Source of the DNA: Candidatus Brocadiia bacterium | GTDB lineage: Bacteria; Planctomycetota; Uabimicrobiia; Uabimicrobiales; JABWCH01 | Assembly: GCA_013359215.1 (NCBI GenBank) | Contig: JABWCH010000189.1 | Coordinates: forward strand, 1 to 10,323 | Reading direction: 5' to 3' | Length of the DNA stretch: 10,323 nucleotides | Shown here: piece after piece, positions 2,433 to 10,133 of the stretch | How positions within the stretch are numbered: the stretch's first letter is position 1 | Layout: each line of letters begins with the position of its first letter | Position numbers and translations under genes: made by a program | The notes under the pieces: model-generated | What the model was told of the DNA's origin: nothing | The model's database searches: none | What the model saw: only the letters and a program-made list of their open reading frames with translations

Positions 2433-3179
2433 TTATTTTTTTTCCAGGCAGATAAAGCTTTCGAGTATTGTTTTGGCTAAATGATGGAATTTTTCTTTGA
2501 ACAAGGGCTTGTTGAAGCCTCTTTTCCACTGGAATGTAAAAAGCTCATCGGAAATCACAACAATCGCAGCTAAAGCAACTCCATGAAATCGGGCAACGGT
2601 ATATAGCGCACTGATTTCCATTTCAACTGCATATATATTAGATTCCTGGTATTTTTTTACTTTCCACACCAGCTCTCTATAAGGCGCATCCGTAGTCCAA
2701 ACCATACCTTCCTGGAAAGAGATACCTTTTTTTTGAAGAATATCGGCTAGTGCAGATATGGCTTTTGTGTCTGGCATAGGCTGTTTCTGATCTGGAAAAT
2801 AGTGCGATGAAGTGCCTTCTTCCGAAAGACTCCCTGTTGCTAAAAGATAGTCCCCAATCAAAAGCCCTGGCTGCAAAGAGCCTGCACAACCTAGCGCAAT
2901 AATATTCTTTGCACCAGAAGCAATCATCTGCTCCAAGAAAAGGGCAGCCGCAGGAGAGCCTGTGGCTGGCCCAACACAAGAAAAGTTTGTATTCTCCAGG
3001 ATTTTGCCTAAAGAAAATTTTTTTTCTTGGTGTCCAGGAAGAAGTTTCCTTAAGATTTCCCAGGATTCGTTTCCCAAAGCCAGAATTGCATTCTGAGGGA
3101 TTTTTTTTTGAGGAACAAAGGGAAACACAATCGATCTTTGTTCCTCAGAGGAATGGCTATCCATTCCAGATTTTTTCAT
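2433..3179 (-). CDS. Nucleoside phosphorylase family-1 enzyme (PNP/UDP fold), MTA/SAH-nucleosidase-like, possibly futalosine-hydrolase-like; 248 aa
   Basis: Motifs match E. coli MtnN: GCAGSL (MtnN GSAGGL), IGDYLLATG (VGDIVVSDE), AVEMEISALYTVA (AVEMEATAIAHVC), VVISDEL (VVRAISDV). The start is either ATG 3179 or ATG 3164 (MDSHSS), and neither has a good SD. Its first 8-23 nt overlap the 3' end of glgP, consistent with co-transcription. Its stop TAA at 2433-2435 abuts the flotillin stop at 2430-2432. Confidence 0.75.
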   Translation of the reverse strand: MKKSGMDSHSSEEQRSIVFPFVPQKKIPQNAILALGNESWEILRKLLPGHQEKKFSLGKILENTNFSCVGPATGSPAAALFLEQMIASGAKNIIALGCAGSLQPGLLIGDYLLATGSLSEEGTSSHYFPDQKQPMPDTKAISALADILQKKGISFQEGMVWTTDAPYRELVWKVKKYQESNIYAVEMEISALYTVARFHGVALAAIVVISDELFTFQWKRGFNKPLFKEKFHHLAKTILESFICLEKK

Positions 3180-5613
3180 TATAATTTTTTATAGAAACAT
3201 CTGCGCTGAATTTGCCCATTCGGGATATATTGACAATTGCCTTTCTGTTCCATTCGTCCTGGTTGCGGTAGAGCTGGTCTACCTTTTCTTTGCATTCTAC
3301 ATAGGAAGCAAAATCTTCCAAAATATAGTATGGATCTCCCTCCTCAAACAACGAATGTAAAAGATCTTTAAACAGATCAGAGGAATCTTTGCAAAGCTCT
3401 CCATTTTTAATAAAATCAATGGTTTTCTTTAGAAGGGGATTTTTTTCATAGATTTCCCAGGAATTATAATTTTGGATCTTTTTTAGATGATTTATCTTTT
3501 TTAAATCCATTCCAAAAACAAAAACATTCTCTATAGAAAGCTCCCGAACCATCTCTATGCTTGCCCCATCCATAGTGCAAACCGTATGTGCGCCATTTAA
3601 GGCAAACTTAAAGAGGCTTGTGCCTGATGCTTCTGTTCCTGCTGTAGAAAGCTGTTCGCTTACATCAGCAGCAGGTATTATTTTTTCTGCCAGGCTGACT
3701 TTATAATTGGGCAGAAAGATTACCTGTATTTTTTTGCTGGCAACAGGGTCTTTTTTTATTTTTTCTGCCACAATATGAATCATTTTAATCAAGAGCTTGC
3801 CTCTCTGGTAATCGGGGCTGGATTTGCCTGCAAAGATAAAAGCGTATGGTAAACGCGCTAAATCAGGATTTTCCTGAATCCTGATATATAAAGAGATTAT
3901 ATGCAGCAGATTGAGTAGCTGCCTTTTGTACTCATGTATCCGCTTTGCCTGCACATCGAAAACCCAACTGGTATCCAGGGTAGTATGCAGCTCTGAAAAA
4001 ATAAAGTTAGCAAGCCTTTTCTTATTAGACAGCTTAATTTGTTGAAAAAGATCTCGGAATCCTTCATCCTGAGAATGAACTTCCAGTTCTCTGAGCTGTT
4101 CCATATCGGTAAGCCATCTATCCCCAATTCTACTTATGATGAGTTCGCTTAGTTCTGGGTTTGCTACCATCAGCCATCTTCTTTGTGTAATACCATTTGT
4201 GATGTTGATGAATTTTCCAGGCTGAAGTTTACAAAAATCAGGTAATGCCGTTTTTGTCAAGAGTTCTGTATGCAGCGATGATACGCCATTTATTTTGTGA
4301 GAGCCTACTGTAGCAAGGTGTGCCATACGGATTTGCTTTTCTTGCCCTTCTTCTACAAGGCTCATGCGACGTAAACGATCTGTTTCTCCAGGGAATGCAA
4401 TATTTACATGATCTAAAAAACGCCTGTTGATTTCATAGATGATTTGTAGATGCCGAGGCAAAAATCTTTGGAAAAAATAGACTGGCCATTTTTCCAATGC
4501 TTCTGGCATAAGAGTATGGTTTGTGTATGAAAAGGCTTTTTCTGTTATAGACCAGGCCATTTCCCAAGGGAGTTTTTTTTCATCTACTAATAGCCTCATA
4601 AGTTCTGGTATTGCCAGAGAAGGATGGGTGTCGTTAAGCTGGATGGCGACTTTTTCATGGAATTGACTATAGTCTTTTCCATTTTCGCTTTCAAACCTCT
4701 TGATAATATCCTGGATGGAGCAGGCAGCGAAAAAATATTGCTGCTTGAATCTTAGCTCTTGCCCTGCAAGGTATTTTTCTCTTGGATAGAAAACGTATGT
4801 TAGCTTTTCTGCTTCAATTTGATGGATAATGCTTTCTGTGTAATTAGACTGCTGCAAATCAGAACGGTCTAAAAATTTAATAGATTTGGATTCCCATAAA
4901 AAAAGGCTGTTGACTGTTTTAGAGTTATATCCTGTAATGAAAATAACATAAGGCAATCCTAAAACTTCATAGCTTGGCTGCCAGATAAATTCTGTACGGC
5001 CCCCTATGTTTTGTACTGCGACTTTGCCTCCAAATTTTACAGCAAAGGCATGGTCGTGCTGTGGAATACACCAAATGCTTTGGTCTTTAATCCAATCTTC
5101 AGGACGAGCTACCTGGTTACCATCTACGATGGTCTGGGCAAAAGTTCCATAATGATATCGAAGCCCATATCCCATGCATGGTATTTTCTGGGTGGCTATA
5201 GAATCTAAAAAGCATGAAGCTAAACGGCCAAGCCCTGCGTTTCCCAGGCCAGGCTCATCTTCAGCAGCACAAATTTTTTCCCAATTCAAAGGACTTCCTT
5301 TGTGGCTTGTTAGCGATTTTTGTATGCTTTTTTGAATCCCAAGATTGATCATATTGTTTACTAAAAGCCGCCCAGGTAAGTATTCTGCGGATAAATAGTA
5401 TAGCCTCTTGACTTTATTTTCTTTATGTTTGTATTGTGTTTTTACCCACATAGGTATGATCTGGTCTTGGAGCAACATCATCAATGCCCTGCAATAATGC
5501 CTTTCCTGAGCATTGGATTTATCCCAAAAGGCGTATTGGAGATGGTCAGAAAATTGTTTCTGGATATCGTCCATACTTAATTTTTTTTCAGAATCAAGAT
5601 AATAATCTTTCAT
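3157..5613 (-). CDS. glgP: Glycogen/maltodextrin phosphorylase (GT35 family, alpha-glucan phosphorylase, PLP-dependent); 818 aa
   Basis: Hallmark matches to E. coli GlgP: YYLSAEYLPGRLL (YYLSMEFLIGRTL), EPGLGNAGLGRLASCFLDSIAT ([22 protein letters not shown]), and the PLP-lysine region EASGTSLFKFALNGA (EASGTSNMKFALNGA). The ORF track opens at 5712 (MNYHKF..., no SD, overlapping the ABC gene). I place the start at the internal ATG 5613 (MKDYYLDSEKK) because a strong SD, AGGAG at 5624-5628, sits 10 nt upstream. That start also gives the ~72 residues before YYLS expected for GlgP. Confidence 0.9.
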   Translation of the reverse strand: MKDYYLDSEKKLSMDDIQKQFSDHLQYAFWDKSNAQERHYCRALMMLLQDQIIPMWVKTQYKHKENKVKRLYYLSAEYLPGRLLVNNMINLGIQKSIQKSLTSHKGSPLNWEKICAAEDEPGLGNAGLGRLASCFLDSIATQKIPCMGYGLRYHYGTFAQTIVDGNQVARPEDWIKDQSIWCIPQHDHAFAVKFGGKVAVQNIGGRTEFIWQPSYEVLGLPYVIFITGYNSKTVNSLFLWESKSIKFLDRSDLQQSNYTESIIHQIEAEKLTYVFYPREKYLAGQELRFKQQYFFAACSIQDIIKRFESENGKDYSQFHEKVAIQLNDTHPSLAIPELMRLLVDEKKLPWEMAWSITEKAFSYTNHTLMPEALEKWPVYFFQRFLPRHLQIIYEINRRFLDHVNIAFPGETDRLRRMSLVEEGQEKQIRMAHLATVGSHKINGVSSLHTELLTKTALPDFCKLQPGKFINITNGITQRRWLMVANPELSELIISRIGDRWLTDMEQLRELEVHSQDEGFRDLFQQIKLSNKKRLANFIFSELHTTLDTSWVFDVQAKRIHEYKRQLLNLLHIISLYIRIQENPDLARLPYAFIFAGKSSPDYQRGKLLIKMIHIVAEKIKKDPVASKKIQVIFLPNYKVSLAEKIIPAADVSEQLSTAGTEASGTSLFKFALNGAHTVCTMDGASIEMVRELSIENVFVFGMDLKKINHLKKIQNYNSWEIYEKNPLLKKTIDFIKNGELCKDSSDLFKDLLHSLFEEGDPYYILEDFASYVECKEKVDQLYRNQDEWNRKAIVNISRMGKFSADVSIKNYNEKIWNG

Positions 5614-5698: not shown

Positions 5699-6391
5699 TT
5701 ATGATAGTTCATATTCAGACAACAAAGCTGGATTGTCTAAAAGATCTTGAATTTTTTCAAAAATGAAAAGATGATGGTTGTGCAACACAAAAGCTCTTGT
5801 ACAAAGAGATGTTATGTACTCATATTCATGAGTAGCGATAATCTGTGTGCATTCTAATTTTGAAATGTAGCTATTTAATTCCTTTTTAGACCTTACATCC
5901 AGGCTGGAAAATGGCTCATCTAAAACCAATATGCCTGGATTTAGGCTAAAGGCTGTAGCAAGCAATAGCTTCTTTTTTTCTCCTGTGCTTAGGCAATAAG
6001 GGTTTTGATGGATATATCCTAAAAGGCCAAAAAAAGACAGGGATTCTTCTATGATTTTTTCTATTTCTTTTTGTTCTTTTCCTTGCTGCAAAAGACCTAA
6101 AGCTATTTCAGAATATACTGTGTTCATAAGAATTTGTTCATCAGGATAGCTAAAAATAGTATACATATCCGTTGGATAGTTCTTCTTCATTTCTTCAAAA
6201 TAAAATTGAATGCTTCCTTTGTATGGTGTAATGAGCTGGTTTAGGGCTTTTATCAAAGTGGATTTTCCGCTGCCATTTTTCCCTAAAAGTGCGATTCTAT
6301 CTTTTGCTTCAATGATAAACGAAATATTTTCTAAAATAGCCTCAGATTCATATCTATAGCTTGCATTTTTAGCGCAGATAAGGCAATTCAT
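5699..6391 (-). CDS. ABC-type ATPase nucleotide-binding domain, EcfA/CbiO-like (230 aa), with no membrane or permease component adjacent
   Basis: Walker A LLGKNGSGKST, signature-like LSTGEKKKL, Walker B ILVLDEPFSSLD and H-loop IIATHEY are all present. FSYPDEQIL resembles the EcfA Q-loop block FQNPDNQ but has Ser in place of the conserved Gln. ATG 6391-6389 overlaps the upstream gene's TGA at 6390-6388 in an ATGA arrangement. Confidence 0.85.
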   Translation of the reverse strand: MNCLICAKNASYRYESEAILENISFIIEAKDRIALLGKNGSGKSTLIKALNQLITPYKGSIQFYFEEMKKNYPTDMYTIFSYPDEQILMNTVYSEIALGLLQQGKEQKEIEKIIEESLSFFGLLGYIHQNPYCLSTGEKKKLLLATAFSLNPGILVLDEPFSSLDVRSKKELNSYISKLECTQIIATHEYEYITSLCTRAFVLHNHHLFIFEKIQDLLDNPALLSEYELS

Positions 6392-7845
6392 AGTGGCTTA
6401 TCGCTAATCCTGAGTTTTTCTCTATGCAAAAAACAGTTATGAAGACGCAAAGCGTAAAAAGGGCATTCTTCATATATGCAGTTGTCTACAGGGCAAAAAC
6501 GATCAGGGATTTTTTTATTCATATCCCATTCTGTTAGAGCAATCTCAAGAATGAGTTCAAATGGCATCAAGGAAGGCTCTCGGTGGGCTTTAGGCGACCC
6601 ATGAACCAAAAGCTTTTGCGATTGATGCAAAAACCACCCAACGACTTCCCCTACTTCATAAAAAGGTATTTCGGAAATAGGGGCTGCAATGGTATATCCA
6701 GAGAGCATTTCCGCTATGCGAAGTTTCGCAGCCAATCGCCTGAAGGTAAAATTTTTCAATTTCCCTAGCTTATTGACAGAAATGCTAATATGCAAACGTG
6801 TTTCATCTTTATAAATGACAATATCTGCTTTATCTTGAAAACGTGCAGCCTTCACTACAAGAGCACTTTGAGCTTCTATTGCTACTATTTTTATTTTATC
6901 CAGTTGATAGATTTTGCTTTTGGTTTTATATTCCACAAGGGCATCCTGCCAGCTTTTTTCATAGCTCACAATACAATCGAAAAGCAAAAAAATAGGCTTA
7001 TAGATGCCTTCAGGGTTGTTCCTGTATAGATGGTAAAAACCTTTTAGTATATTGGGAAGGCCAACTATCTGGTCTTTGGATGTGTTAGCTTGAAGAAAGT
7101 AGCTTCTTGGCTTAAGGTTTTTTACAAAAGATATGATTTTTTGGAATTCTGGAATAGACTCAATTCCCTTGCTTTGAACAAAATGATCAAAGTATTTTTC
7201 TGAAATGTACATCTCTTCTGTAAGCTTGCATTGAAGATGCCTTTCGCATAGATACAATGCCATGATTTTTTTTAAATTGAGATTTTCAAAAATTTCTTCT
7301 TGCATTCCAGGATTCAGCTCATGCCCCAAAAGGGAAATGCCAGAAAACGAAGCTTCAATAGATTGGAATACTTCTAAAAAAAATTGGGTCATTCCAAGAA
7401 AATTATTTCCAAAATGGATGAGTGCTCCACGAATAATGTTGGGCAAAGCTGTTGTATGATCTATAGGGTTTTTAGATCTTAAAGATTGGCCTGCACTGTC
7501 TTGTAATCGCGTAAACTCTAAAATATCTTTTAGCGATTCTTTGTTCTCAACGCCTAAATCCTGAGCTACAAGATTTGATGCAGATAGAGTCAGCTTTTCT
7601 TTTTCCAAAGTAATTCCGTCAGGATGCGTATCTAATTTTCCGCCTCCAATATCTACAGCCAGGATGCCTTCCTTTTCTAATTCTTCGGGTGTTTTATTGT
7701 CTGGCAAACGGCCAGCGGGATAAAAGCAAAGCTTTGCCTTGGAAATACCAGGGTAACGCTTTTCCCCATACTGTTGCAAAAGATAACAACAGAGCATGGC
7801 ATCCAGATCGGGATATTCATGAGTGATGATTGTGTGAAATTCCAT
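6388..7845 (-). CDS. Uncharacterized 485-aa soluble protein with an N-terminal DHH-phosphoesterase-like motif set (divergent) and a C-terminal Cys cluster
   Basis: IITHEYPDLDAMLCCYLL matches DHH motif I of NrnA-type enzymes (hHxxPDxDAxGS). The downstream ILAVDIGGGKLDTHPDG could be compressed motifs II and III, with DTH where DHH is expected. No canonical DHHA1 GGGH is visible. The C-terminus reads CPVDNCIYEECPFYALRLHNC (C-x4-C-x4-C-x9-C). The only in-frame start before the upstream stop at 7873-7875 is ATG 7845, and it has no SD. The gene is coupled by ATGA to the ABC ATPase. The DHH assignment is by eye only. Confidence 0.65.
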   Translation of the reverse strand: MEFHTIITHEYPDLDAMLCCYLLQQYGEKRYPGISKAKLCFYPAGRLPDNKTPEELEKEGILAVDIGGGKLDTHPDGITLEKEKLTLSASNLVAQDLGVENKESLKDILEFTRLQDSAGQSLRSKNPIDHTTALPNIIRGALIHFGNNFLGMTQFFLEVFQSIEASFSGISLLGHELNPGMQEEIFENLNLKKIMALYLCERHLQCKLTEEMYISEKYFDHFVQSKGIESIPEFQKIISFVKNLKPRSYFLQANTSKDQIVGLPNILKGFYHLYRNNPEGIYKPIFLLFDCIVSYEKSWQDALVEYKTKSKIYQLDKIKIVAIEAQSALVVKAARFQDKADIVIYKDETRLHISISVNKLGKLKNFTFRRLAAKLRIAEMLSGYTIAAPISEIPFYEVGEVVGWFLHQSQKLLVHGSPKAHREPSLMPFELILEIALTEWDMNKKIPDRFCPVDNCIYEECPFYALRLHNCFLHREKLRISDKPL

Positions 7846-7852
7846 AAAAAAT

Positions 7853-7880
7853 TGGCGTAGATTTTTGAAGAATTACGCCA
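7853..7880 (-). terminator. Terminator-like or attenuator-like hairpin in the 5' leader, directly abutting the AUG of the 485-aa gene
   Basis: The minus-strand RNA reads UGGCGUA-(14 nt)-UACGCCA followed by AUUUUUU-AUG. The stem is 7 bp with 5 GC pairs and the loop is large at 14 nt. No SD lies between the hairpin and the start codon. Confidence 0.3.
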
Positions 7881-8081: not shown

Positions 8082-8327
8082 CTAATTTTGTGGGGTTGCT
8101 TGCTTTTTTTGCTGTTGTCGTTGTAGCTTTCTAGCTGCTTTTGCCATTATTTTTTGGCAAGAGGAGCAGACAACTTGCATCTCGGATTTTCCTTGCACTT
8201 TATGCCACCCACCCCAGTTTTTTGCCAGGCTGTCTACGCAAATTTTACCTGATTTAATGCTTATTTTGCCTACTTGTTTATTGCATTGAAAGCATTTGTT
8301 TTCTACATTTTTCCAATATGTTGCCAT
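8082..8327 (-). CDS. Small zinc-ribbon protein (81 aa) with a basic C-terminal tail; putative nucleic-acid-binding or regulatory protein
   Basis: Cys pairs C12-x2-C15 and C54-x2-C57, plus C30 and H42, with a K/R/Q-rich tail AKAARKLQRQQQKKQ. ATG 8327-8325 lies 1 nt after the upstream gene's TAA (TAA-T-ATG), and GGAG sits 7 nt upstream. No family is recognised. Confidence 0.6.
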   Translation of the reverse strand: MATYWKNVENKCFQCNKQVGKISIKSGKICVDSLAKNWGGWHKVQGKSEMQVVCSSCQKIMAKAARKLQRQQQKKQATPQN

Positions 8328-8328
8328 A

Positions 8329-9477
8329 TTAATTCTCCCAAAACAAACTACGCGCTTGCCACCAATTTTCCCATTCGTTTTTCGATGAGAAATCCTGGTT
8401 TGTAAATCTTTTCAATATACCAAAGCTTACCAGAGAAACAGGGCTAGAACTTTCTAATACTCCGATCAAACGAGGAATTGCTTCTTTTTTCTCTTTTTGG
8501 GTTAAAAAAAAAGAAGCAAAAAAAAGGTGCTTTTCATAGCCCAGAGAAATCGCCCACAAACAGGAATTTAAAGGACTTTTCAGCAAATAGTGAAAAGTAT
8601 TTGGCAAAGAAGATGTTTCCTTTTCCCCGAAATCAATTCTTGGATAAGAAAAAATTTTTCCTTTTGCTATACGACAGCGAGGAAGGGCTGCCGCTATTTT
8701 CCAGACACGGTAAGACAAAAGAGAAGGTATGGGATTAGGGATTTTAATCTGAAAAATTTTGCTGGCCCCTGGAGGGAGTTTTATTTCCTCTCCCAAAGAA
8801 ACAATTTTTGTATAGGTTTCGCTTTTTTGGTTTCCATGCAAAAAATAGTCTTTTTGCGTTATATCCAATACAATTCCATGATTCTTAGACGTGAAAATAG
8901 TAATCTCTGTTGGTTGTAGGTTGGATAGATGGAACTCCAGGAGAATCTCTTCGCCAAAAGAATAGTATTCTTGAGAGAATCGCAATTCTGCTTTGGCTTC
9001 TACTTTTTCTGCGTTAGCAAGGTTGCATTCCACAATGAAAGCATTGATTTCGCTGGAAAGATCAATAGATGGCTCTAATATTAAAATGGCTTGTGCTATT
9101 TTTAATGCTTCCTGGTGCTTCCCTTGCTTGAATAGTTCTTTTGCTTTTTGATAGCATTCTTTAAAATACTCTAATTTTGACCACTCTTTTTGTGGAATAT
9201 TTTGCAATTTTTCTAAAAGATAGAAATAGCGAGGATTTTGGGTTTGCTCCAGCCGCTCTTTTACAGGGTAAAGCGATTTTTTGCCCATATCTAAAATGCT
9301 TTGCATAGCCTTTTCTATCTGGCTAGAGGTGCTTTCTCTGGATTCGATAATCATAAAGAAGGGTAGCCATGAAGAATGGTGTGCTTTTTCTTGGGAGAAA
9401 ATGCCTATACAAAACCACAGCAATAAAAATAGGTACAATCGCTTTTGTTGCAAGGCTAATTTCCTTCTTTTTTCCAA
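8329..9477 (-). CDS. Hypothetical membrane-anchored or secreted protein (382 aa) with an N-terminal signal-anchor-like segment and one TPR-like repeat
   Basis: The N-terminus KRRKLALQQKR + LYLFLLLWFCIGIF has the charged n-region and hydrophobic h-region typical of a signal anchor. AKELFKQGKHQEALKIAQAILILEPS fits the TPR consensus. The apparent start is TTG 9477, with no in-frame ATG, GTG or TTG upstream before it overlaps the preceding gene. The alternative is ATG 9354 (M42), which would remove the anchor. The long ORF is significant in AT-rich DNA. Confidence 0.6.
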   Translation of the reverse strand: MEKRRKLALQQKRLYLFLLLWFCIGIFSQEKAHHSSWLPFFMIIESRESTSSQIEKAMQSILDMGKKSLYPVKERLEQTQNPRYFYLLEKLQNIPQKEWSKLEYFKECYQKAKELFKQGKHQEALKIAQAILILEPSIDLSSEINAFIVECNLANAEKVEAKAELRFSQEYYSFGEEILLEFHLSNLQPTEITIFTSKNHGIVLDITQKDYFLHGNQKSETYTKIVSLGEEIKLPPGASKIFQIKIPNPIPSLLSYRVWKIAAALPRCRIAKGKIFSYPRIDFGEKETSSLPNTFHYLLKSPLNSCLWAISLGYEKHLFFASFFLTQKEKKEAIPRLIGVLESSSPVSLVSFGILKRFTNQDFSSKNEWENWWQARSLFWEN

Positions 9478-10133
9478 AAATTTTCTTGAGGTTTTTCTAA
9501 GTACTCTTGCCAGCTTTTTTTTAGAATAGCTTCCTGCTTTAAAGAGTATTTTTGTTCTTCCATTTCTAAAACTATACCTTCTATATCCTCTGTTTTCAAA
9601 GATTCAGGAAAGGCTATAAGATAGGATTTAGCATATCCTATAGGAATTTTTTCAAAATTCAGAAAGCTTTTTAAAAAAAGAAAATACTTTTTGGGTACTT
9701 TCTGCATACTATCTAGCAAGGAGATATTAGTATAGCATTTTTTCTCCTTGGTTTGTACGCTTATCTTATCTCTTGTGTCTTGAAAATCCAAAGAAGGGTT
9801 CTGAAAATTCACAAACAAAAGTTTGTAGTATGCCATTTTGCTACCAAAAGCCTGGTTGAAAATTTGTTCGTGAAAATTGCTTTCTTTTGCGTCAAAAAAA
9901 TAGGTATATAAAAAAACATGAGCGGAATTCAAAGTAGTATACCAAAAAGAAATGATTTTTTTTTCTTCTTTTTCTACGTGGGCTTTGATTTCTGATTGCT
10001 CTTTTTGCATATTCCTCTTTTCAAAAAAACGAAAAGCTAAAGAATGCAAAAAGAAAAAAAATAAAATAAACCATAAAAAAGAGGCAATAAAATAGATTAT
10101 GCGTCCTTTTAAAATGCTATCATACCATTTCAA
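9456..10133 (-). CDS. Hypothetical protein (225 aa) with an N-terminal transmembrane or signal-anchor segment; K/E-rich
   Basis: The ORF is bounded by TGA at 10148-10146 and has a TTG start at 10133 with GAAAG 9 nt upstream. KGR + IIYFIASFLWFILFFFFLHSLAF is a signal-anchor-like segment. The alternative start is ATG 10010 (M42), which has AGAGGA immediately upstream. The 3' end overlaps the next gene by 22 nt. No family is recognised. Confidence 0.5.
   Translation of the reverse strand: MKWYDSILKGRIIYFIASFLWFILFFFFLHSLAFRFFEKRNMQKEQSEIKAHVEKEEKKIISFWYTTLNSAHVFLYTYFFDAKESNFHEQIFNQAFGSKMAYYKLLFVNFQNPSLDFQDTRDKISVQTKEKKCYTNISLLDSMQKVPKKYFLFLKSFLNFEKIPIGYAKSYLIAFPESLKTEDIEGIVLEMEEQKYSLKQEAILKKSWQEYLEKPQENFWKKEGN

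Follow-up and report, generated by a model that had tools for sequence, protein, structure and literature searches.

A question raised by the DNA analysed here, a complete 10,323-bp contig of a metagenome-assembled genome (MAG) of 'Candidatus Brocadiae bacterium' (Planctomycetota; the whole contig is called the window below), is whether two overlapping genes on its minus strand act together. One of them (6388-7845, deposited at NCBI as hypothetical protein HUU50_14110) encodes a 485-aa protein, and the other (5699-6391) encodes a 230-aa protein with a single nucleotide-binding domain (NBD) of the ATP-binding cassette (ABC) type. The original prediction was that the 485-aa protein is DHH-like and that the ABC ATPase, paired with a soluble enzyme, serves in a non-transport role. 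Our analysis supports the DHH-like fold but not the functional partnership. We judge it reasonably probable that two functionally unrelated genes, one for a divergent DHH/DHHA1 phosphoesterase and one for an ATPase of the energy-coupling factor (ECF)/CbiO type, happen to stand in one co-directional run. This answer draws on the predicted fold and the residue conservation of the 485-aa protein, the lack of conserved adjacency between the two genes, and the occurrence of an ABC orthologue in the context of substrate-binding (S), transmembrane (T) and ATPase (A) components.

The sequence models that we used did not place the 485-aa protein. The Pfam scan returned no family at E<=0.1, including PF01368 (DHH) and PF02272 (DHHA1), the NCBIfam scan gave no relevant match, including the NrnA, GdpP and RecJ models, PADLOC gave no match, and a PDB sequence search with the family profile found nothing at E<=10. 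The claim that the protein is not recognisable as NrnA, GdpP or RecJ was therefore correct, as it escapes all these models. An AlphaFold2 (AF2) model built on 29 homologues had a predicted local distance difference test (pLDDT) score of 88.3 and a predicted template modelling (pTM) score of 0.87. It consists of an N-terminal alpha/beta domain (residues ~1-145; 7411-7845), an all-helical insert of ~160 residues (~146-305; 6931-7410), a second alpha/beta domain (~306-440; 6526-6930) and a Cys-bearing C-terminal tail, and the predicted structure has the two-domain DHH + DHHA1 fold. A Foldseek search with this model matched archaeal RecJ2 (E 9e-5), with DHHA1-type C-Ala domains of alanyl-tRNA synthetase among the matches, and the top structural matches were active small-substrate enzymes (8a8k and PggH). 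Thus, the DHH-like assignment was borne out by the predicted fold, although the PF01368 and PF02272 searches gave no match. Judged from its model, the 485-aa protein is a genuine but divergent and unnamed member of the DHH/DHHA1 superfamily, supported at the fold level and failing strict motif and hidden Markov model (HMM) tests.

Residue conservation was read from an alignment of 29 rows of close homologues (A1, identity down to 29%), and counts for the wider family were taken from 111 cluster representatives. The N-terminus of the 485-aa open reading frame (ORF), MEFHTIITHEYPDLDA, contains the H-x2-PD-x-DA motif of the original prediction as H9-x2-P12-D13-x-D15-A16, in which H9, P12, D13 and D15 are kept in 28/29 homologues. 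The ligand positions of motif I (D13-L-D15), motif II (D65) and motif IV (D116) are invariant or present in 28/29 rows, the motif equivalences being based on order, spacing and secondary structure. The full set of positions conserved to this degree comprises H9, D13, D15, D65, G67-G68-G69, D72, H74 and D116 in the putatively catalytic DHH-like domain as well as R335, R376, E379, W404, H407, G416, S417 and K419 in the DHHA1-like domain; in the wider family, D15, D72, H74 and D116 are retained in at least 108 of the 111 representatives. Motif III reads D72-T73-H74 in place of Asp-His-His, with T in 25/29 close homologues. Across the 111 representatives the middle residue is E in 67, H in 23 and T in 11, and true D-H-H members therefore exist within the wider family. 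The GGGH motif is likewise absent: the turn equivalent to it, by position in the domain only, is H415-G416-S417-P418-K419, whose G, S and K are invariant in A1.

The C-terminal cysteine cluster was also present as claimed (6424-6495). Direct reading of the sequence gives C451-x4-C456-x4-C461-x9-C471 followed by x2-H474, and the four cysteines are found in 25/29 close homologues and in ~70/111 distant ones. Their conservation across homologues shows that neither the motif residues nor the four cysteines arose by chance. From its sequence, the Cys4 cluster is presumed to be a metal-binding module (Zn or Fe-S). The helical insert is poorly conserved and is missing from family members of 320-370 aa; classical DHH proteins have a short linker at this place. 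In three homologues (P0020, P0021 and P0022; 586-590 aa), an extra insert at A1 columns ~230-400 holds a second, degenerate copy of the N-terminal motif region (for example 'LDMDSALSIYLLRKYG' and 'ILMVDTEY'), so that part of the DHH-like domain may have been duplicated internally. The assemblies of a sister species differ from one another at the other end of the protein: in one of them (L003, 7599-8963) the product (P0002, 454 aa) stops before the Cys cluster, while the others encode 479 aa (for example L008, 8559-9998), and the shortening is probably an assembly or frameshift difference.

Among characterised enzymes, a close structural parallel is the pGpG-specific PggH (VCA0593) of Vibrio cholerae, in which D13, D15, N55, D67-H68-H69 and D121 form the Mn2+ site and H282 of the GGGH motif binds the substrate (PMC8861645). 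The 485-aa protein shows the same ligand order and spacing, with D13, D15, D65, D72-T-H74 and D116 and the same short gap between motifs II and III. It differs from PggH and NrnA in that sequence identity is ~13%, the Pfam DHH and DHHA1 models and the NCBIfam DHH models do not match it, Thr replaces the first His of DHH, and G-S-P-K replaces GGGH. Moreover, sequence and model show that the helical insert takes the place of the linker and that a Cys4 module is added at the C-terminus. The other top structural match, 8a8k, is a DHH-type phosphatase of 3'-phosphoadenosine-5'-phosphate (pAp) from Methanothermococcus thermolithotrophicus. This archaeal enzyme, of 317 residues, has neither insert nor Cys cluster, the two proteins do not match at the sequence level, and the examined loci of the 485-aa family show no sulfate-assimilation context.

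When 1.84 billion cluster representatives were searched with a profile, 1438 family members were found at E<=1e-3, 886 of them at <=1e-10, and many of the 1438 are proteins of 320-370 aa that lack the helical insert. In a species-level genome scan, 112 relatives were detected in Planctomycetota (including Ca. Uabimicrobium), Bacteroidota, Ignavibacteria-like bacteria, Calditrichota, Myxococcota and bacteria of the candidate phyla radiation (CPR), with further relatives in MAGs labelled Rickettsiales or Gammaproteobacteria. By sequence similarity, the 485-aa protein belongs to a large unnamed family that spans many phyla. The only curated families reached by any member are ChrB_C (PF09828) and, weakly, DHH (PF01368). 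ChrB_C, the C-terminal domain of ChrB, was matched by 10/111 representatives (best E 6e-7) and by the 277-aa CPR relatives, which score 29 bits (cutoff 25) over the N-terminal DHH-like domain and also match DHH at E 8e-5; matches to DHH are limited to distant relatives (E 8e-5 to 0.018). In contrast, the window protein does not match ChrB_C even at E<0.1. In ChrB proteins the N-terminal domain is of another kind, and these proteins are described as regulators responding to chromate.

The genomic context of the family offers a clue to its role. Immediately upstream of the DHH-like gene, 17 loci carry a gene for an HD-GYP protein that has a GAF domain (in some cases FHA-GAF) and the canonical HHExxDGxGYP motif, and this adjacency is the only strongly recurrent context of full-length family members. 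The HD-GYP gene is co-directional, often overlapping, in eight loci (L020, L048, L049, L051, L052, L054, L055 and L058) and divergent in nine (L007, L027, L031, L034, L036, L037, L038, L040 and L047). Its coordinates are, for example, 8158-9909 in L020, 8388-9983 in L048, 5252-7435 in L054 and 6026-7750 in L007. The 17 loci represent two deep clades of DHH-like proteins that are ~30-40% identical to each other, one full-length with the Cys cluster and the other of 320-330 aa without it, and both share the motif type of the window protein (PDLD / VDxGGG / D[TN]H). As the loci within each clade are related, they do not amount to 17 independent events. Nevertheless, because the adjacency persists through orientation changes across deep divergence, a functional link between the HD-GYP and DHH-like genes is suggested. 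HD-GYP enzymes degrade cyclic di-GMP (c-di-GMP), and the DHH/DHHA1 enzymes PggH and NrnA hydrolyse pGpG and other dinucleotides (PMC8861645); the neighbourhood of c-di-GMP phosphodiesterase genes in other phyla is a further likeness of the 485-aa family to PggH and NrnA. As a working hypothesis, we infer that the family may hydrolyse linear, pGpG-like dinucleotides or short nucleotides.

In the mechanism that we propose, the soluble 485-aa protein would most likely bind a divalent metal through H9, D13, D15, D65, D72, H74 and D116 in the cleft between its DHH-like and DHHA1-like domains, and would most likely hydrolyse a phosphoester bond in a small nucleotide substrate. Our best guess is that this substrate belongs to the linear dinucleotides or very short oligonucleotides, as pGpG does, or to the nucleoside bisphosphates, as pAp does. 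Both the helical insert and the Cys4 module at the C-terminus are additions specific to the family, probably with a structural or regulatory function. For its part, the 230-aa protein would be a catalytically competent A component that dimerises on T and S components presumably encoded elsewhere in the genome, and the 4-bp overlap between the two genes would reflect operon packing in this lineage, not shared function.

The 230-aa protein was recognised as an ABC NBD, as had been stated, by PF00005 (E 3e-23). Its Walker A (G37-x4-GKS), Q-loop (Q86), signature (L134-STGE), Walker B (D158-E159) and H-loop (H188) motifs are intact and are invariant in a six-member clade, and it is apparently a complete, functional NBD by its sequence; its close clade numbers 6-7 members at 54-73% identity. 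The best profiles were those of ECF ATPases, all scoring below cutoff: TIGR04521 (ECF_ATPase_2) with 146.7 bits against 330, TIGR04520 with 141.5 against 315, and TIGR01166 (cbiO) with 118.1 against 211.8. The protein resembles EcfA, CbiO and BioM A components in these profile matches, in its full set of ATPase motifs and in having an orthologue that stands behind CbiQ-like and S-like genes. It differs from them in staying below every curated cutoff, in having no T or S gene in the contig or, in the sister species, within 10 kb, in ending without the C-terminal extension that EcfA/EcfA' proteins (280-290 aa) possess, and in its signature, which is LSTGE and not LSGGQ. An identity as an ABC-F protein was considered and rejected, as the protein has a single 230-aa NBD, similar to NBD2 only, with neither the tandem NBDs nor the P-site tRNA-interaction linker of that family. 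A defence system combining an ABC/AAA_21 ATPase with a nuclease was also rejected: only generic P-loop models matched, scoring below the ECF models, and no partner was matched.

We then consider how widely the two genes occur together. In the window, the stop codon TGA of the DHH-like gene (6390-6388) overlaps the ATG of the ABC gene (6391-6389), reading ...CTATGAATTGC..., and this ATGA coupling (6388-6391) is as originally reported. The neighbourhood sample comprised 80 species-level loci fetched from the 112 relatives detected, and the ABC protein was searched by tblastn against 92 loci. Outside the window, an adjacent ABC copy was found in one sister species only (L003, L008, L009, L010 and L013). 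There the ABC protein is 73% identical, the gene order is the same (225aa-372aa-81aa-DHH-like-ABC-glgP-PNP), and the junction between the DHH-like and ABC genes is a 2-bp gap. The pair is absent from all other loci of the sample, and the pairing is therefore not conserved in the family. The DHH-like relatives of ~50% identity within Planctomycetota (Ca. Uabimicrobium, L014-L019 and L004) have other neighbours and no ABC gene. Conversely, ABC orthologues of 59-60% identity occur without the DHH-like gene in two loci (L011 and L012).

One of these two loci, L012, shows the ABC gene in a transporter-like setting. Its 60%-identical orthologue follows, after a 2-bp gap, a gene for a 213-aa multi-helix membrane protein that matches TIGR02454 (ECF_T_CbiQ) at E 1.4e-6 over profile positions 9-196/200 and whose sole PDB matches are CbiQ chains (E 0.13). 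Before this gene lies a truncated membrane protein with a weak match (E 0.002) to PF12822 (ECF_trnsprt), an ECF S-component family. A single-sequence AF2 model of the T-like protein reached a pTM of 0.30 and was too poor for a fold search. A protein homologue search with this T-like protein returned the query itself only, and jackhmmer and phmmer searches against the ORFs of the examined loci, including the window, gave no match. A scan of metagenome contigs with the ABC clade alignment yielded only generic ABC ATPases of <=33% identity and no extra contexts. Because the two genes adjoin only in the window and in one sister species, and an ABC orthologue sits in an S-like/CbiQ-like/ATPase operon, an enzyme-ATPase complex is unsupported. 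From these comparisons, the 230-aa protein is most likely an ordinary ECF/CbiO-type A component that has been parted from its membrane partners and stands beside an unrelated gene.

Several observations weigh against this account of two unrelated genes. On the side of the enzyme, no sequence model assigns the window's own 485-aa protein to DHH or DHHA1; with D-T-H for DHH and no GGGH, it could be inactive or of different chemistry; and the Planctomycetota clade of the window (L013-L019) shows no HD-GYP linkage, which is transferred to it across ~30% identity. On the side of the ATPase, the best PDB sequence match is NBD2 of the ABC-F protein YbiT (117 bits; residues 329-511), compared with 91 bits for EcfA2. 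The T-like and S-like calls in L012 are below curated cutoffs and come from one 2.8-kb contig, and no T or S gene was found in the window or within 10 kb in the sister species. A search of genome contigs with the T protein of L012 found nothing, a result from which absence from the lineage is not to be concluded. Finally, the tight ATGA coupling is compatible with co-function. That coupling, the junction that is still tight in the sister species, the missing membrane partner, the soluble ABC-F proteins as best PDB sequence matches of the NBD, and its scores under all ECF equivalog cutoffs would all fit an ABC ATPase that works as a soluble, non-transport partner of the DHH-like enzyme in an ATP-driven regulatory or nucleotide-processing complex. 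We nevertheless regard such a complex as very unlikely, given that the pairing is limited to two closely related species among the 80 loci, that relatives of the enzyme within the clade lack the ABC neighbour, that ABC orthologues do without the DHH-like gene, one of them in an S-like/T-like/A operon, and that the pair matches no defence-system or other two-gene model.

Two other explanations concern the 485-aa protein alone. It might be a non-catalytic ligand sensor or scaffold with a DHH fold, comparable to the RecJ homologues associated with Cdc45/GINS or to the C-terminal domain of ChrB, with the Cys4 cluster as a metal or redox sensor. The degenerate DHH and the lost GGGH would agree with this, as would the ChrB_C matches of distant relatives, to a domain of a chromate-responsive regulator, and the neighbouring genes for tetratricopeptide repeat (TPR) proteins and Ser/Thr kinases in Planctomycetota, which suggest signalling. 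However, the expected metal ligands are conserved throughout the 29 homologues, four of them nearly throughout the wider family, and the top structural matches are active enzymes. Because an invariant ligand pattern is typical of active sites, an active site is favoured over a scaffold, and we hold the sensor or scaffold role to be improbable. About equally improbable, in our estimate, is that the enzyme is a housekeeping pAp phosphatase or general nanoRNase with no link to second messengers. In its favour, the window's own clade has no adjacent HD-GYP gene, and the short CPR relatives lie between proS and rpsU-ybeY, in a context of RNA metabolism; yet no sulfate-assimilation genes occur in any neighbourhood examined, and the HD-GYP adjacency is the recurrent one. 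More tentatively still than our account of two unrelated genes, but with somewhat better prospects than these alternatives, the family may be a class of DHH-fold phosphodiesterases that spans phyla and has gone unrecognised, with D-x-H, G-S-x-K for GGGH and Cys4 as its hallmarks, and that takes part in cyclic-dinucleotide turnover either at a step after GAF-HD-GYP enzymes or jointly with them. Such a class could supply the 'missing' hydrolase of pGpG and other linear dinucleotides where Orn, NrnA or PggH is absent, and the Cys4 module might couple its activity to metal or redox state. It is less likely that, in addition, the enzyme of this Planctomycetota lineage has gained in the ABC ATPase a soluble partner that regulates it.

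The two genes belong to a run of seven co-directional ORFs on the minus strand, assigned from the ORF list with families by Pfam and NCBIfam. The run begins with a 225-aa ORF with a single hydrophobic segment (9456-10133), followed by a 382-aa protein with weak TPR signals in the Pfam scan (8329-9477) and a small 81-aa Cys-containing protein with two CxxC pairs, directly upstream of the DHH-like gene (8082-8327). Three Planctomycetota species have the genes for these two proteins ahead of the DHH-like gene (47-75% identity for the 81-aa and 34-65% for the 382-aa protein), with 81-aa homologues in the same upstream place at 75% (L003/L013) and 47% (L004/L016) identity. Neither protein has a family assignment, and the 81-aa protein is zinc-ribbon-like. 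More generally, the syntenic neighbours in the window's Planctomycetota clade encode a TPR-like protein (340-380 aa), a small protein containing Cys (76-81 aa) and Ser/Thr kinases. Downstream of the ABC gene lies glgP (alpha-glucan phosphorylase, 3157-5613; PF00343 E 4e-290; TIGR02093 1011 bits against a cutoff of 553), an assignment that is secure by sequence. It likely starts at the ATG of 5613-5611, which has AGGAG in front of it and lies 85 nt from the ABC stop codon, in agreement with the co-directional placement described before. The last gene of the run encodes a PNP_UDP_1 nucleoside phosphorylase or AMP-nucleosidase-like protein (2433-3179; PF01048 E 6e-34), and it overlaps the end of glgP by 23 nt, a pairing and order also seen in the sister species. 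A function shared between glgP and the DHH-like/ABC pair was rejected, as glgP and the PNP-like gene are downstream of the pair in the same two species only.

At the other end of the contig, on the plus strand, a CheW-like gene (265-777) and a gene for a 572-aa SPFH/Band-7 protein whose long coiled-coil tail is rich in Glu and Lys (714-2432) converge on the PNP-like gene. The window encodes no polytopic membrane protein, only single hydrophobic segments in the 225-aa and PNP-like ORFs, and the statement that the ABC gene has no transmembrane partner nearby was accurate for this contig, to which it applies. An Rfam scan of the window matched no RNA element, and the number of promoter-like and terminator-like sites in the window equals the shuffled-sequence expectation. 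A GGCGUA...UACGCC hairpin followed by AAUUUUUU (7849-7880, minus strand) abuts the start codon of the 485-aa ORF and is present in the sister species with a G-U change; its folding energy is not significant (z -1.3).

Other contexts recur among the more distant relatives of the DHH-like gene. Relatives of ~277 aa, found in CPR bacteria as well as in MAGs labelled Gammaproteobacteria (L086, 9992-10828, and ~25 similar loci among L059-L092), keep a fixed gene order of prolyl-tRNA synthetase (proS), the DHH-like gene, ribosomal protein S21 (rpsU) and YbeY. In Bacteroidota and Ignavibacteria-like bacteria (L030, L033, L039, L041 and L002), the DHH-like gene stands directly behind a same-strand ORF of giant size (>3000 aa), and one cluster representative (P0163, 3717 aa) has a DHH-like region near its C-terminus. 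Directly downstream of the DHH-like gene, four species carry a 400-aa metalloenzyme like the archaeal-type cofactor-independent phosphoglycerate mutase (PF10143 + PF01676), at 1676-2878 in L029, 7768-8970 in L032 (with a 4-bp overlap), 1923-3125 in L035 and 11546-12748 in L037. UbiA is another recurrent neighbour, at three loci.

Overall, the coupled pair, which by its ATGA junction resembles an enzyme-ATPase complex, is a lineage-specific juxtaposition, and it illustrates that gene overlap alone is weak evidence for shared function. What remains of interest is a large DHH-fold family that lacks annotation, carries a Cys4 module and is associated with HD-GYP genes. If the 485-aa protein and its relatives are active phosphodiesterases linked to HD-GYP enzymes, they would form a new branch of the enzymes by which cyclic-dinucleotide signalling is brought to an end or dinucleotides are removed. 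This would matter for Planctomycetota, Bacteroidota, Calditrichota, Myxococcota and candidate phyla, in which the classical enzymes are often unannotated, and more than 1400 unannotated protein clusters would gain a name and a function open to testing.

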